DNA from: Candidatus Sulfobium sp.
GTDB lineage: Bacteria > Nitrospirota > Thermodesulfovibrionia > Thermodesulfovibrionales > UBA6898
Reading direction: 5' to 3'
NCBI GenBank assembly: GCA_037380845.1
Contig: JARRRI010000020.1
Location: forward strand, 52,046 to 90,505
DNA length: 38,460 nt
Below are positions 20,159 through 28,339 of this stretch, piece by piece (the first letter of the stretch is position 1; every line of letters begins with the position of its first letter). The translations under genes were made by a program, and so were the position numbers. The notes under the pieces are model-generated. The model made no database searches. It saw nothing but the letters and a program-made list of their open reading frames with translations, and had not been told where the DNA came from.

Positions 20159-21130
20159 ATGGACATCAAATTGACAAATCTCTCAAGCTGCGCCGGTTGA
20201 GCGTCTAAGTTCAGTCCTTCGGACCTGTCCCACGTGCTGGGGCAGCTGCCTGCGATTACCGATGCCAATGTGCTGGTCGGCTCCACCAATGAGGACGATG
20301 CCGGAGTTTACCGCATATCGGACGAGACCGCAGTGGTTTTAACCACTGATTTTTTCACTCCTATCGTTGACGACCCATACTGGTTCGGTGCAATCGCCGC
20401 CGCAAACTCCCTGTCGGATGTGTGGGCGATGGGAGCCAGGCCGATAGTAGCCCTGAACGTTGCTATGTTTCCTCACCAGCCCGAATTTTTTCCCGTGCTG
20501 CAAAGGATCATGAAGGGGGGGATCGACAAGATGACAGAGGCCGGGGTGTCGATAGTGGGGGGGCATACGATCAGGGACAAAGAGCCGAAGTTCGGCTACA
20601 CGGTTATGGGCGTCGTCCATCCCGGCAAGGTGCTTCATAACGCGAAGGCACGTCCCGGAGATGCGCTTGTTCTCACAACCTCTTCCATGGCTGCCCTGAA
20701 TAAGAAGGCCGGAGAGATCATGGTCGAGGTCGGGGTTGACACCGCTACGGACATAACCGGCTTCGGTCTTATAGGACACCTCCTTGAAGTGCTGCGGGCG
20801 AGCGACTGCACCGCACGGCTTTACTCAGGCCGGGTGCCCCTTTTTCAAGACGCCCTGAATCTGGCGGATAAGGGAATAATACCGGGAGGCACGAGGGAAA
20901 ACCGGAAAACCTTCGAGCAATACGTGTCGTGGGACGAAGACGTTACGGAGAGCCGGAGGATTCTGATGAACGACGCCCAGACGTCCGGCGGCCTCCTCAT
21001 CTTTGTGCCGGATGCGGACAGGGACAGGCTGGTCGATGCGTTGCATAAAGAAGGGTTGATTGCGGCGTACATCGGTGACGTCACCGGCCGCGGGGCGAAA
21101 AACGGAAAGAGGGTATTTGTCGGCCGGTAA
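20159..21130 (+). CDS. selD: Selenide, water dikinase with selenocysteine (UGA at 20198-20200); apparent internal in-frame deletion
   Basis: ATG 20159 reads MDIKLTNLSSCAG-U-ASK in frame with the 20234 ORF. Motifs DDAGVY, DFFTPIVDDP, GGHT, DITGFGL and DAQTSGGLL. Confidence 0.93.
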
Positions 21131-23873: not shown

Positions 23874-23874
<1 letters not shown>

Positions 23875-25223
23875 CAGGTCATCTTTTCTTTGACAACCTT
23901 CGATATATCCATGCCGAGCCTTCTTATTGTTTTCAGGTCATCCCCTTCGAGCATGATGCGTATCTTCGGCTCCGTGCCTGACGGCCTTACAAGCACCCTG
24001 CCCCGGCCGTCAAGCTGCTCTTCGGCCGTCCTGATCGCCCCTTCGATTTCAGGTATCGCTGAAAGGTCATGCATCTTCTCGACCTCGACGTTAAGGAGTA
24101 CTTGCGGGAAAAGCCTGACCCTGGATGCCAGCTTCGAAAGCGGCATATCACTGCTCTTCATAACGTTCAGGACCTGCACGGCCGTTACAGGTCCGTCTCC
24201 CGTAGTGTTAAGGTCCAGGAAGACGAGATGCCCCGACTGTTCTCCCCCCAGGTTATGGTCCCCTTCGATCATCTTTTCGACCACGTACCGGTCGCCGACC
24301 TTCGTCCGTACCAGCCCGATTCCCTGCCTTTCCAGAAACTTCTCCAGCCCCAGATTGCTCATCACCGTCGCCACCACCGCATTTCCCTTGAGCGTGCCTT
24401 CTTTTTTCATGGCAGAGGCGCAAATACCCATTATCTGATCGCCGTCAACAATCTTCCCTTTCTCATCGACCAGCAGCGTCCGGTCAGCATCCCCGTCATG
24501 AGAAATACCGATATCGGCTTTGTGCTTTCTTACTGTTTTGCGGAGCCCTTCCAGGTGAAGAGATCCGCACCCCGAATTTATGTTGACCCCGTCGGGCCTG
24601 TCGTTGACGGCTATCACATCGGCGCCCAGTTCCCGCAGGAGCCAGGGAGTGGTCTTGTATGCGGCCCCGTTGGCGCAGTCTACCACAATCTTCATGCCTT
24701 CGAGTGTCGTGCCCTTCCGGAGCGTTGACTTGATGTATTCGATATACCGTCCGGTGGCATCGTCAAGCCTGTGGGCCTTGCCGACTTCCTCACCCTTGGG
24801 CCTGAACCTGTGCAGGGAGTCGTCCATCACCAGTTCTTCTATTCTCTTTTCGACGCTGTCGGGAAGTTTGAACCCGGTGTAGGAAAAGAATTTTATCCCG
24901 TTGTCCTGATAAGGATTGTGAGAGGCAGAAATCACGATGCCCGCGTCGATCCTCAGCGTCCTCGTAAGAAAGGCTATGCCCGGCGTGGGCAGGGGACCGA
25001 CAAGAGTAACGTTCATACCCATGGAACATATTCCCGACGTTAGGGCGCTTTCGATCATGTAACCGGAAAGCCGCGTGTCTTTGCCGATCAGCACCATGTT
25101 TCTCCCGTGATGCTCCTTCCTGAGCACCGTAGCCGCAGCCATTCCTATTTTGAGGACATTCTCCGGTGTCATCGGGTGCCGGTTGATCCTTCCCCGTATA
25201 CCGTCTGTACCGAAAAGCCTCAT
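23874..25223 (-). CDS. glmM: Phosphoglucosamine mutase
   Basis: FGTDGIRG, SASHNP, DGDADR, GGEQSGH and RPSGTEP. Confidence 0.97.
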
Positions 25224-25867
25224 CTCTTCCCCTCTTCAATCACTATAGTAACCTGGATGGTGCTGACCTCTATTTTGACATTCGTATTGGTGCCGTCCAG
25301 GCTTACTTCTTTAACCGTGGTCGTTGTCAGCCCCGAGATGTCGACTACGTCCGTTCTGAGTTCGCGTATCTTTTTTACTTCGGACTCCAGCCCCCGTACT
25401 TCGACGGTCCGGGGCTGGACGTCTATGGACTTTATAAAATATCCTTTTGCGGGAATTCCTATCACGGTGGGCCTCACCTTAACGGATTTCGTGACCGTTT
25501 CTTCAATGTCGAGTTTGACCGAGGAGGGTGCGACGTTCATGACCGACATGGCATAAGGCAGCCTGATATCGTCCTTGTTAATGTAATAAGTCGCCTTTCC
25601 GGTCTTGGCCCTGGTCAGGTCCACGGACACCCGGACGTCGGCGGGCTGCAGGCTTTTCATGATCCGCTCCTGTCCCCTTATCGTCACATTCACCTCTTTG
25701 GTACTGGCGGTGACAATGCCATAGCCCGCAGGGACATTCTTGAATTCCAGGGGGACCTCAAGAGATATTTCGGACTGCCCCCTCGATGTCACGAACAGCC
25801 ACAGGAATACAGCGAGCAGCAGGGCGGATATCTTGAGACTGAGGTTTCCGAAAAGCAGTTTCCTCAT
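25220..25867 (-). CDS. cdaR: YbbR-like/CdaR diadenylate cyclase regulator
   Basis: N-terminal TM (KISALLLAVFLWLFV) and beta-rich YbbR-like repeats, located between cdaA and glmM. Confidence 0.85.
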   Translation of the reverse strand: MRKLLFGNLSLKISALLLAVFLWLFVTSRGQSEISLEVPLEFKNVPAGYGIVTASTKEVNVTIRGQERIMKSLQPADVRVSVDLTRAKTGKATYYINKDDIRLPYAMSVMNVAPSSVKLDIEETVTKSVKVRPTVIGIPAKGYFIKSIDVQPRTVEVRGLESEVKKIRELRTDVVDISGLTTTTVKEVSLDGTNTNVKIEVSTIQVTIVIEEGKR

Positions 25868-26631
25868 TTCTTCCCCTTGCTTGCAGCGAACAGGTCGGTC
25901 ATCAAATCTCTCAGCGTCCCCATATCCAGTTTAGTTTCCAGTCTGCCGTCCATGCTCATCGATATGAACCCCGTTTCCTCGGAAACAATTACTGCCACGG
26001 CGTCTGTTTCTTCGGTAAGGCCGATGCCGGCCCGGTGCCTGGTGCCGATCGACTTGCTCAATTCCGAACTCAGAGTTATCGGGAGAAAGCATCCGGCAGC
26101 AGCCACCCTGTTGCCTTTTATAATAACCGCTCCGTCATGGATAGGGGAAGTGGGATGGAAAATGCTGAGCAGCAGTTCTTTGGAAACTCTGGCATCGAGG
26201 GGGGTGCCGACCTCGACGAAGTCCTTCAGACTGGTATCCCGCTCGATCACGATCAGTGCCCCGATCTTTCTGTTGGCGAGGGAAACCACCGCCCTTACAA
26301 TCTCTTCGAGAGACTTGAGCTCTTCGGCCTTTGTAAAAGTGAGAAACTGCGTTTCGCCCATATGGGCGAGGGCCCTCCTTATCTCAGGCTGGAAGAGCAC
26401 GATTATCGCGATAACAATCTGGGACCAGAAACTCTGGACAAGCCAGTCGATCGTGTATAGTTCGAGGTAGCGGGACGCTATGGACGCAAGCAGCAGAATA
26501 CCGAGTCCGATCAGCATCTGTGCGGCCTTTGTCCCCTTCACAATCAGCAGGAGGCGGTAAAGAATTACCGCCATTACCGTAATGTCGAGGATGTCGAGGA
26601 TCCATCTGTGATGGCGTAAAATTTCGATCAT
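25864..26631 (-). CDS. cdaA: Diadenylate cyclase CdaA/DacA
   Basis: Three TM helices, FQPEIRRAL, DGA (HDGAV), RHR (GTRHRA) and VSEETG. Confidence 0.95.
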   Translation of the reverse strand: MIEILRHHRWILDILDITVMAVILYRLLLIVKGTKAAQMLIGLGILLLASIASRYLELYTIDWLVQSFWSQIVIAIIVLFQPEIRRALAHMGETQFLTFTKAEELKSLEEIVRAVVSLANRKIGALIVIERDTSLKDFVEVGTPLDARVSKELLLSIFHPTSPIHDGAVIIKGNRVAAAGCFLPITLSSELSKSIGTRHRAGIGLTEETDAVAVIVSEETGFISMSMDGRLETKLDMGTLRDLMTDLFAASKGKK

Positions 26632-27530: not shown

Positions 27531-27560
27531 GCTCCGGCCTAAATGGGCCTTGGAGGGCAT

Positions 27561-27590
27561 TGGACATCGGCCGCGCCGAGCGGTTATAAT
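27561..27590 (+). promoter_or_regulatory. sigma70-type promoter, probably leaderless, for the Cys/Sec microprotein
   Basis: TGGACA-N18-TATAAT, with the ATG beginning 7 nt after the -10 box and no RBS in between. Confidence 0.55.
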
Positions 27591-27596
27591 CCACGC

Positions 27597-27731
27597 ATGG
27601 AAACATGCGACACCTGCGGGCGGCCCCTGGAAGAGTGCGTCTGCTGCCTCGGCTGAGGGCATAGCTGCCCCCTGGACCTGGGGGAGCCGTTCTGTCCCGT
27701 CTGCAAACCGGTGCCCGGAGGGACGGTCTGA
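27597..27731 (+). CDS. Putative Cys-rich selenoprotein microprotein (44 aa, UGA at 27654-27656)
   Basis: METCDTCGRPLEECVCCLG-U-GHSCPLDLGEPFCPVCKPVPGGTV. Cys patterning continues across the UGA, and a hairpin follows immediately. Confidence 0.6.
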
Positions 27732-27841: not shown

Positions 27842-28339
27842 ATGGCGGAAGAGCATTCATTCGATATTGTAAGCAAGGTAGACCTTCAGGAGGTCCTTAA
27901 CGCCGTCCAGCAGGCGATGAAGGAGATACAGCAGCGTTTCGACTTCAGGGGCAGCAAAAGCAATATAGAGTTGAACAGGGACAAGCATGAGATAACCCTT
28001 GTTTCGGATGACGAAGGCAAACTGAAAAGTGTTATAGACATACTCCAGACAAAACTCGTGAAGAGGGGCATATCACTCAAGGCACTGAACTACGGCAAGA
28101 CAGAGCAGGCATCGGGCGGTACGGTAAGGCAGATAGTGACCCTTCAGCAGGGGATACCGGTCGAGAAGGCAAAGGAGATCGTTAAGCTAATCAAGGACGC
28201 GAAGATGAAGGTCCAGGGAGAGATACAGAAGGACCAGGTGCGCGTCAGGGCAAAGAAAATAGATGACCTGCAGGCTGTCATGAAGGCGATAAAGGAGAAG
28301 GATTTCGGGATCCATATCGACTTCATCAACTACAGGTAG
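27842..28339 (+). CDS. yajQ: YajQ family nucleotide/c-di-GMP binding protein
   Basis: SFDIVSKVD, RFDFRGS, QGI and DDLQAVM..NYR. GGAGG RBS. Confidence 0.93.
   Translation: MAEEHSFDIVSKVDLQEVLNAVQQAMKEIQQRFDFRGSKSNIELNRDKHEITLVSDDEGKLKSVIDILQTKLVKRGISLKALNYGKTEQASGGTVRQIVTLQQGIPVEKAKEIVKLIKDAKMKVQGEIQKDQVRVRAKKIDDLQAVMKAIKEKDFGIHIDFINYR

Follow-up and report, generated by a model that had tools for sequence, protein, structure and literature searches.

A review of prokaryotic selenoproteomes from 2026 lists 119 selenoprotein families (PMC13188914). According to the criteria given there for bacterial selenocysteine insertion sequence (SECIS) elements, the apical loop has 3-9 nucleotides (nt) with a G at position 1 or 2 that in most cases precedes a G or U, the upper stem has 4-16 base pairs (bp), the spacing between the UGA and the loop is 16-37 nt, and the minimum free energy (MFE) is -7.5 kcal/mol or lower (PMC13188914). 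Here, we describe a short gene with an in-frame TGA codon in a 38,460-nt stretch of DNA, referred to as the window, from the Candidatus Sulfobium sp. assembly GCA_037380845.1 (contig JARRRI010000020.1, positions 52,046 to 90,505 of the forward strand). The locus is very probably a genuine selenoprotein gene. For the fuller reading, in which this is a real gene for a cysteine-rich selenoprotein of about 44 residues from an undescribed conserved family, we estimate a probability of about 0.8.

When the TGA codon is read as selenocysteine (Sec, U), the frame that starts at ATG 27597 encodes the peptide METCDTCGRPLEECVCCLGUGHSCPLDLGEPFCPVCKPVPGGTV, which contains eight cysteines in addition to the residue encoded by the UGA. 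This start codon, the TGA at codon 20 and the eight cysteines had been pointed out in a preliminary description of the window, together with the hairpin and the TATAAT box, and all of them are present in the sequence (Table 1). Since only an open reading frame (ORF) of 37 amino acids, 27543..27656, is listed when the DNA is read with genetic code table 11, the full gene would be missed by a gene caller. An alternative in-frame ATG at 27543 could lengthen the ORF; the stretch in question is conserved promoter DNA, and the longer ORF was ruled out because several relatives (L077, L086, L098 and L106) have in-frame stop codons immediately 5' of the methionine codon in the same upstream stretch. 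The same arrangement was found again in dozens of genomes, and the arrangement at the locus is far beyond chance. In 43 relatives, the stop codon that follows the conserved core is TGA, TAA or TAG at a variable distance, and the C-terminal tail past the KPxP motif is conserved neither in length nor in sequence. In a subset of the loci (L017, L033, L043, L077, L084, L100, L104, L119, L131 and L140), the C-terminus is extended past KPxP by a conserved stretch resembling ...KEMLKATIESLKK..., which may be an added amphipathic helix.

Table 1. Coordinates in the window of the peptide gene, its predicted signals and two further genes.
Feature	Position	Strand	Basis or remark
44-residue selenoprotein coding sequence	27597..27731	+	Stop codon included; invariant columns and codon periodicity on either side of the UGA
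In-frame TGA read as selenocysteine, codon 20	27654..27656	+	Sec/Cys column shared by homologs
Terminal TGA, true stop	27729..27731	+	Stop type and distance vary among relatives
-35-like hexamer TGGACA	27561..27566	+	Consensus scan; relatives mostly have TTGAAG
-10 box TATAAT	27585..27590	+	Six bases before the ATG; the A of the ATG is the 7th base past the box
SECIS upper stem-loop (predicted)	27668..27685	+	5' arm (C)CCCC, apical loop UGGACCU(G), 3' arm GGGG(G)A
CCCCC/GGGGG hairpin arms	27668-27672 / 27680-27684	+	Loop TGGACCT; part of the MFE fold
Possible extended SECIS with outer helix GGGCA (27657-27661) / UGUCC (27693-27697)	27657..27697	+	RNAalifold columns 4-8 with 40-44; encloses the upper stem-loop
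selD (selenophosphate synthetase)	20159..21130	+	TIGR00476, 215 bits, and neighbour; one TGA, 20198-20200
yajQ (DUF520)	27842..28339	+	PF04461, 216 bits; NF003819; downstream, same strand

The reading of the UGA as a Sec codon is carried by the homologs. We used the peptide with U written as C as a query against 60 related genomes (totals of 61 include the genome of the window) and obtained matches at E ≤ 1e-8 in 46 of the 61 genomes, at 47 places, of which 38 contain one TGA and eight contain none, while one is a frameshifted Cys form. This frameshifted copy (L020, G029:C29:95869-95967), with its N-terminal part out of frame and an in-frame TAA, is either a pseudogene or an assembly error. 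Two of the genomes with a TGA form, G041 and G013, consist of a single contig. A six-frame reading of the loci placed the TGA always in the same column, with Cys in that column in the remaining loci. The scan of one genome per species found 186 relatives, from which 80 were kept, 78 of them with a recognisable core, and the codon 20 column of these 78 named loci holds 45 TGA and 33 TGC or TGT codons. After deduplication, 93 unique homologous sequences were available, with TGA in 58 and TGC or TGT in 35. Homologs are thus numerous and of both forms, and the TGA is not unique to this genome.

In the alignment of 43 members, C4, C7, C14, C16, U/C20, G21, H22, C24, L26, G29, E30, C33, P34 and C36 are invariant, and conservation 3' of the UGA is at least equal to that on the 5' side. 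Across 112 sequences, C4, C7, C16, C24, C33 and C36 are invariant, and C14, C17, C20, G21, H22, G29, P34 and P38 are conserved in at least 90%. Codon periodicity is present on both sides of the UGA; downstream of it, the entropy in the Sec forms is 0.21, 0.34 and 1.14 at codon positions 1, 2 and 3, respectively. Because pairing, conservation and periodicity together make up the classical signature of a Sec/Cys pair, we excluded a stop codon, a sequencing error or a pseudogene. The proposal in the preliminary description that the UGA is a Sec codon is thereby upheld, with TGA and Cys codons alternating in one column between two conserved flanks.

The genes for the decoding of Sec, selA, selB, selC and selD, were all found in this genome. 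The selA gene (620 bits) adjoins selB (332 bits), and the tRNA for Sec (73 bits, with the anticodon tca according to ARAGORN) is located on another contig, no tRNA having been identified in the window by ARAGORN. As had been stated earlier, the selD gene in the window itself encodes a selenoprotein, its in-frame TGA falling within the motif SSCAGUASKF, and about 13 nt past this UGA a short hairpin begins. Among the relatives, selA scores above the cut-off in 60 of 61, and the sole exception (G010) is also without the peptide. Genomes with Cys forms retain selA, and the switching between Sec and Cys therefore takes place inside Sec-decoding lineages.

The predicted SECIS hairpin begins 12 nt past the UGA, its loop starts 17 nt past the UGA, and the MFE fold that holds it has an energy of -20.9 kcal/mol for 60 nt. 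In the RNAalifold consensus of 58 Sec forms, columns 16-19 pair with columns 28-31 (27669-27672 with 27681-27684 in the window), and the apical loop opens with an invariant U-G-G-A; for the sequence of the window, an alternative 5-bp register shifted by one base is equally possible. With an apical loop of 7-8 nt, an upper stem of 4-5 bp, GG at loop positions 2-3, 16 nt between the UGA and the loop, and a mean MFE of -9.3 kcal/mol for nt 10-36, the hairpin agrees with all of the published bacterial SECIS criteria. A possible outer helix, which would extend the element, is weakly supported by the comparison of relatives: its sole variable pair, 6:42, is formed in 46 of 58 Sec forms versus 14 of 35 Cys forms, and the remaining four do not vary because Gly-His and Cys-Pro codons fix them in the Sec and Cys sets alike.

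The Cys forms, which have near-identical amino acids and are free of the RNA constraint, served as the control for this hairpin. Leu26 is encoded by CTG, which supplies G21 of the loop, in 56 of 58 Sec forms as compared to 7 of 35 Cys forms, Gly29 is encoded by GGG in 46 of 58 as compared to 5 of 35, and codon 25 is CYC in 49 of 58 Sec forms and CCC in 8 of 35 Cys forms. The mean local MFE is -9.3 in the Sec forms versus -6.3 in the Cys forms, and the mean z-score relative to synonymous resampling is -1.59 versus +0.09. Pair 17:30 is formed in 54 of 58 Sec versus 12 of 35 Cys forms and pair 18:29 in 56 of 58 versus 23 of 35. The entropy at third positions is 0.83 in Sec versus 1.44 in Cys forms over codons +1 to +10, and 1.46 versus 1.52 over codons +11 to +20. 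Within the Sec forms, pair 17:30 is C-G in 26, U-G in 20 and U-A in eight sequences, and in the eight U-A double changes the replacement of Pro by Leu (CTC) is always coupled with the Gly codon GGA. Judged from these comparisons, the hairpin is kept through the choice of synonymous codons in the TGA forms only, and the SECIS-like hairpin of the preliminary description is supported both by this form-specific codon choice and by one compensatory pair. SelB and the Sec-tRNA would decode UGA-20 with the help of the SECIS element, which would double as the codons for C24-P/L-L-D-x-G-E.

The gene is preceded by a conserved promoter. An independent consensus scan identified TGGACA (27561) and TATAAT with a spacer of 18 nt, matching 11 of 12 positions. 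In nearly all loci of the order, TATAAT is located 5-6 nt before the start codon with a TTGAAG-like -35 element about 18 nt upstream, and in nearly all of them, the window included, no Shine-Dalgarno sequence precedes the start. A -10 box that ends 4-9 nt before an in-frame start was found in 71 of 95 unique loci, in 63 of them as an exact TATAAT, and the best -35 element has at most two mismatches in 44 of these 71. The background is 4%, a near-match to the -10 box being present in 168 of 4159 long ORFs of this genome. Split by form, the arrangement is present at 55 of 60 Sec loci versus 16 of 35 Cys loci, and the Cys forms of Thermodesulfobacteriota have GGAGG boxes instead. From the position of the box, we infer that transcription starts at or beside the A of the AUG, giving a leaderless mRNA in this lineage; the strong sigma-70-type promoter would produce such a message, and 70S ribosomes would start at its 5'-terminal AUG. 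The putatively leaderless promoter of the preliminary description is conserved within the order, but not in a distant family, which is Shine-Dalgarno-led. For the genome at large (G000), an exact TATAAT 4-9 nt before the first ATG was counted in 48 of 4159 long ORFs, and leaderless genes may be a regular minority class in this organism.

We searched for known families that might include the peptide. Pfam and NCBIfam (release 20.0) returned nothing for it, and when 43 members were scanned against both at E ≤ 10, the best E-value was 0.0019 and none of the matches came near a cut-off. None of the 119 families in the review fits the peptide, and the nearest-sounding entries were tested with models. 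The hidden Markov model NF041197 (cut-off 40 bits) did not match the window peptide at E ≤ 10 and was not among the matches listed for the 43 members. NF041239, a family with a CC/Se motif (cut-off 40 bits), had no match in the genome at E ≤ 10, and neither NF041239 nor, at E ≤ 10, TIGR02605 was among the matches listed for the 43 members (first 25 of 30 families). A scan of the whole window against Rfam at gathering thresholds gave 0 matches. The genome contains a second unannotated small selenoprotein gene outside the window (G000:C42:8452-8607, L149:1400-1760, minus strand), which is a member of NF041197 (51.7 bits) and reads ...MCRDCKGELKLLMGURTVTLRCMDCGKRY..., with one TGA between two CxxC knuckles.

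A word search with the single sequence yielded no candidate, and a query built from an alignment was needed. In a collection of 5.8 billion proteins, 71 relatives were identified, all of which are Cys forms or fragments named "hypothetical protein", apart from one named "rubrerythrin" (a JGI record). The ESM Atlas returned only unnamed clusters, at 0.88, which is below the level that counts as anything beyond a lead. No earlier description was found in full-text searches of the literature, which a candidate listed only in a supplementary table could have escaped, and a term search of the covered part of Haft's 2022 preprint found no mention of rubredoxin, zinc ribbon or Nitrospir*. As far as can be told, the family is undescribed in the databases and literature covered, in agreement with the earlier statement that no named family could be recognised: Pfam, NCBIfam, the table in the review and the names in the databases all point the same way.

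The closest named relative is encoded by a metagenome-assembled genome (MAG) of Candidatus Sulfobium, with a peptide that is 84% identical and the gene order glmM-ybbR-cdaA / DUF3786 / peptide / yajQ. Most other relatives are from Thermodesulfovibrionales or Nitrospirota MAGs, and Cys forms were also found in MAGs of Thermodesulfobacteriota/"Deltaproteobacteria". In an even sample of 301 genomes from the phylum, the gene was identified in 69; it is near-universal in family f1 and frequent across the order, it also occurs in other families of the class (f14-f17) and in 26 of 64 genomes of f22, and it was not found in f26, f27 and f29 (0 of 102). A TGA is located inside 57 of the 73 phylum-wide matches, and nearly every member of the order has a single copy per genome. 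A profile search against 1.84 billion representatives gave 31 matches at E ≤ 0.001: 29 small proteins that belong to the family, a C-terminal fragment beginning just past the TGA, and a fusion with a TadA-like deaminase. The domain of the peptide is fused to a TadA-like cytidine/adenosine deaminase domain in P0022 (195 amino acids) and P0047 (106 amino acids), and at one locus (L145:3001-3572) the deaminase gene abuts the peptide gene with an overlap of about 3 nt. By the Rosetta-stone argument, the fusion is a hint towards tRNA or nucleotide metabolism.

We also compared the neighbouring genes. The commonest neighbour is yajQ, located directly downstream in 37 of 78 loci, mainly in one family, and there is no terminator-like site between the peptide gene and yajQ in the window; the two are possibly co-transcribed. 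The YajQ family is cyclic-di-GMP-binding according to its NCBIfam name. YajQ was considered as an obligate partner and rejected, as 43 genomes have both genes, 3 have only the peptide, 10 have only YajQ and 5 have neither. The FeS-DUF3786 protein encoded upstream, with which the preliminary description had suggested a working partnership, was likewise rejected, being adjacent in only 14 of 78 loci, all of them close kin. Further upstream, on the minus strand at 23874-26631, the window contains glmM-ybbR(cdaR-like)-cdaA, the last encoding a DAC-domain cyclic di-AMP synthase, in an arrangement that is syntenic in close relatives. At other loci, the peptide gene has unrelated neighbours (NfeD/SPFH, MgsA, YceD, UDG, HD-OB, HDOD and TadA), and the genomic context tells little about function.

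The role of Sec-20 was approached through remote similarity. The best match in the PDB to the profile of 112 members is the rubredoxin-type domain 4tpu_A (E 6.7e-4), in an alignment in which the two iron-binding knuckles correspond to C17-x-x-U20-G and C33-P-x-C36 and the 12-residue spacer between them is the same. The second match is the zinc ribbon of the archaeal RNA polymerase subunit B, 3qqc_A (CxxCGH...CPVCG; E 0.0025). Weak similarities were also observed in Pfam to zinc-ribbon, RING and rubredoxin-like domains of rubrerythrins, with PF21349 (RUBY_RBDX) matching 9 of 43 members below its cut-off (best E 0.022). The CxxU knuckle of the preliminary description receives weak support from the rubredoxin-type alignment. 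Eight Cys/Sec ligands are available and therefore enough for two tetrahedral sites. The peptide would then fold round two tetrahedral metal sites made from eight near-invariant Cys/Sec ligands, with Sec-20 as the second ligand of a CxxU-G knuckle that, together with C33-P-x-C36 12 residues away, would provide an M(Cys)3(Sec) centre. The other site would be formed by C4, C7, C14 and C16, with C24 and H22 nearby. Such a protein might serve as a small redox, electron-transfer or metal-handling module, and the effect of selenium would be to tune the metal site in its reactivity or potential.

On the sequence comparisons, we give about even odds to Sec being a metal ligand in a two-site mini-protein of the rubredoxin/zinc-ribbon type. 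A more specific version is tentative: Sec may be a native ligand of iron, as Fe(Cys)3(Sec) or in a Sec-ligated Fe-S cluster, in a core and highly expressed component of electron transfer or the oxidative stress response in Thermodesulfovibrionia and related anaerobic Nitrospirota, produced from a leaderless mRNA. If so, the action of SelB and the SECIS element would be confined to about the first 90 nt of the mRNA, the protein would be the smallest and simplest natural system for the tuning of a metal centre by selenium, and its message would be the first leaderless one reported for a selenoprotein.

Several observations speak against parts of the interpretation given above. The related genomes are not independent, and counts across them overstate the support. 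In the database clusters P0010, P0020 and P0032, the Sec column is occupied by R, W or A (CCPERGH, CCPGWGH and CCPEAGH); the W could stem from the translation of a TGA under another code in the source pipeline. Covariation in the hairpin is modest, as only pair 17:30 has double changes and 395 of 500 shuffles reach one such pair, and most helix positions never vary. Some Cys forms (L012/L082, L009, L010 and L125) can still form the hairpin (for example CCCTCTGGATCTGGGGG), which in these look like "fossil" SECIS elements from a recent replacement of Sec by Cys. The distant family f22 has AAGGAG and a short N-terminal extension in at least three of five Sec forms with a readable core. Concerning the metal site, the rubredoxin match is borderline for a Cys-rich profile, with no Pfam or NCBIfam model at its cut-off, and several members have Y, F, Q, S or G in place of C17, which would be the first ligand in the proposed CxxU knuckle; in these, C16 or another residue would have to take over as the ligand. 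AlphaFold2 models were of only moderate confidence (predicted local distance difference test scores of 67.4 and 72.1) and matched no solved fold in searches with Foldseek against the PDB and VIA-align wide, a result that is uninformative for a metal-dependent peptide of 44 residues.

Two alternatives concern the nature of the gene, both of them highly improbable. If the UGA were a genuine stop, the locus would encode a 19-residue peptide, represent a decayed gene, or contain a leader ORF that responds to selenium and has no role but the regulation of yajQ downstream. The termination of the ORF at 27656 under table 11 is as this would predict, and so is the presence of yajQ 3' of the gene and in the same orientation at 37 of 78 loci, the window having no terminator-like site between the two; moreover, as the recoding of a UGA is always incomplete, a certain amount of termination product is to be expected. 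However, the conservation of amino acids 3' of the UGA exceeds that on the 5' side, with clear periodicity at third positions, the 35 unique homologs with a Cys codon are called full-length in public databases, and the TGA is kept in 58 unique sequences from several families and a second class-level lineage. In addition, yajQ does not adjoin the gene in about half of the loci, and 3 genomes with the gene have no yajQ at all. The peptide could alternatively be the precursor of a Cys-rich ribosomally synthesized and post-translationally modified peptide (RiPP), SCIFF-/ranthipeptide-like or selenobacteriocin-like, rather than a folded metalloprotein, given that it is short, rich in Cys and has its own promoter, and that the list in the review includes a Sec-containing RiPP family, selenobacteriocin (PMC13188914). 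Radical SAM genes adjoin 3 of the 38 loci scanned for neighbours (L094, L115 and L132), but two of the three are encoded on the opposite strand, the remaining loci have unrelated housekeeping genes as their context, and the scanned loci have no conserved maturase, transporter or protease neighbour. Furthermore, the whole peptide is conserved, with no division into leader and core and with invariant Gly, His and Pro typical of metal knuckles, nearly every member of the order has one copy per genome, and there is no match to TIGR04081 or another RiPP model in NCBIfam.

Two further alternatives concern the chemistry of Sec-20. The main rival to a role as metal ligand, which we consider possible but doubtful, is that Sec-20 forms a redox-active CxxU selenenylsulfide couple with C17 (or C16) on a zinc-ribbon scaffold of C4xxC7 and C33PxC36; the peptide would in that case act as a mini thiol/selenol oxidoreductase or as a redox sensor. 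CxxU and UxxC are the commonest motifs in the 119 families, the majority of which are presumed to be redox-active (PMC13188914), and the outer CxxC...CPxC, in which 25 residues separate C7 from C33, could by itself make a clamp of rubredoxin size. A Cys-Sec selenylsulfide relay has also been proposed for Sec197 of HdrA (PMC13518236). Against such a couple, C17 varies in Sec forms (Y, F, Q or S in L007/L075, L045, L115 and L133), the alignment of the profile to the PDB places U20 on a metal knuckle with the hallmark 12-residue spacing to CPxC, two four-ligand sites would use up all eight near-invariant Cys/Sec, and neither a thioredoxin-like fold nor a partner reductase was found among the neighbours. 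HdrA was itself considered as a precedent for a Sec-ligated Fe-S cluster and rejected, as Sec197 is described as part of a Cys-Sec bridge in the same cryo-EM study from 2026 (PMC13518236). It is unlikely that the peptide is a mini-ferredoxin, in which C14-x-x-C17-x-x-U20-x-x-x-C24-P would bind a [4Fe-4S] or [3Fe-4S] cluster with Sec as a ligand and the terminal knuckles would form a stabilizing second site. The PsaC/ferredoxin motif does match ("dtCIGCtqCvraCPLDv" versus "deCiCCpeUGHvCPLDlGE", E 0.005-0.01), weak NCBIfam similarities were obtained to NuoI, HdrA, RnfC, GlpC and DsrK, and among the selenoproteins in the review is an "Fe-S oxidoreductase-like" one that has a UGH motif (PMC13188914). 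Yet at least seven members have another residue in place of C17, whereas C16, which lies outside the motif, is invariant; a second CxxCxxC motif that could take C24-P as in 2x[4Fe-4S] ferredoxins is lacking, all E-values are above 0.001, and no Fer4 model of Pfam is among the 25 commonest weak matches. No such UGH protein is present in this genome, and a regular-expression search of the genome for other proteins with C..C..U...CP gave no credible candidates.

These results suggest an apparent new selenoprotein family beyond the approximately 119 listed. As gene callers miss the Sec forms, the selenoproteomes of Thermodesulfovibrionales and related sulfate- and sulfur-cycling Nitrospirota are under-counted. 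The protein is among the smallest selenoproteins and has no thioredoxin fold, with Sec in an apparent metal-binding knuckle; if this placement is true, it offers a 44-residue model of selenium-metal coordination that is within reach of chemical synthesis. The presence of Sec and Cys forms in one order, with selA kept in 60 of 61 genomes, provides a view of why Sec is retained or replaced, and the putatively leaderless arrangement raises the question of whether SECIS-dependent recoding works on 70S-initiated messages without a 5' untranslated region.

Compared with known systems, the locus resembles the standard bacterial SECIS, for which fdhF of E. coli is the paradigm, in that the hairpin is located immediately 3' of the UGA inside the ORF, with GG in the loop, a spacing of 16 nt, an MFE below -7.5 kcal/mol and reliance on selA, selB, selC and selD. 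It differs in the putatively leaderless mRNA, with the UGA just 57 nt from the 5' end, and in the short upper stem (4-5 bp), for which slippage by one register is possible. NF041197, "CxxC_Se_CxxC" (OS_HP3 / DW in the review), is likewise a zinc-ribbon-like selenoprotein of anaerobes, of about 50 residues, that is usually missed by gene callers, but its Sec is located between two CxxC knuckles (...LLMGU...) and not within one, and it has four Cys as compared to eight here. The zinc-ribbon regulatory proteins of the FmdB family (TIGR02605, UxxU) are also small and have Sec at knuckle positions, but they differ in architecture and have two Sec in a single knuckle. The rubredoxin and zinc-ribbon knuckle pairs (4tpu_A and PF21349; 3qqc_A) share the CxxCG knuckle, the 12-residue spacer and the CPxC knuckle, and the size is typical of a mini-protein of the rubredoxin class; unlike these, the peptide has five further conserved Cys and a His (the putative second site) and Sec as the second ligand, and unlike true rubredoxins it lacks the aromatic core signature and has a first ligand, C17, that is not invariant. 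The CxxCxxCxxxCP motif of ferredoxins (PsaC and clostridial ferredoxins) is reproduced by C14-xx-C17-xx-U20-xxx-C24-P25, but the second Cys of the motif is dispensable here, there is no second cluster motif, and the E-values are 0.005 or worse. With the "Fe-S oxidoreductase-like" selenoprotein, a large GlpC-type enzyme from hydrogenase/Hdr operons, the peptide has U-G-H in common. The locus would use standard bacterial recoding, and what is unusual is the size of the protein, the likely position of Sec in a metal knuckle, and the conserved, putatively leaderless promoter.

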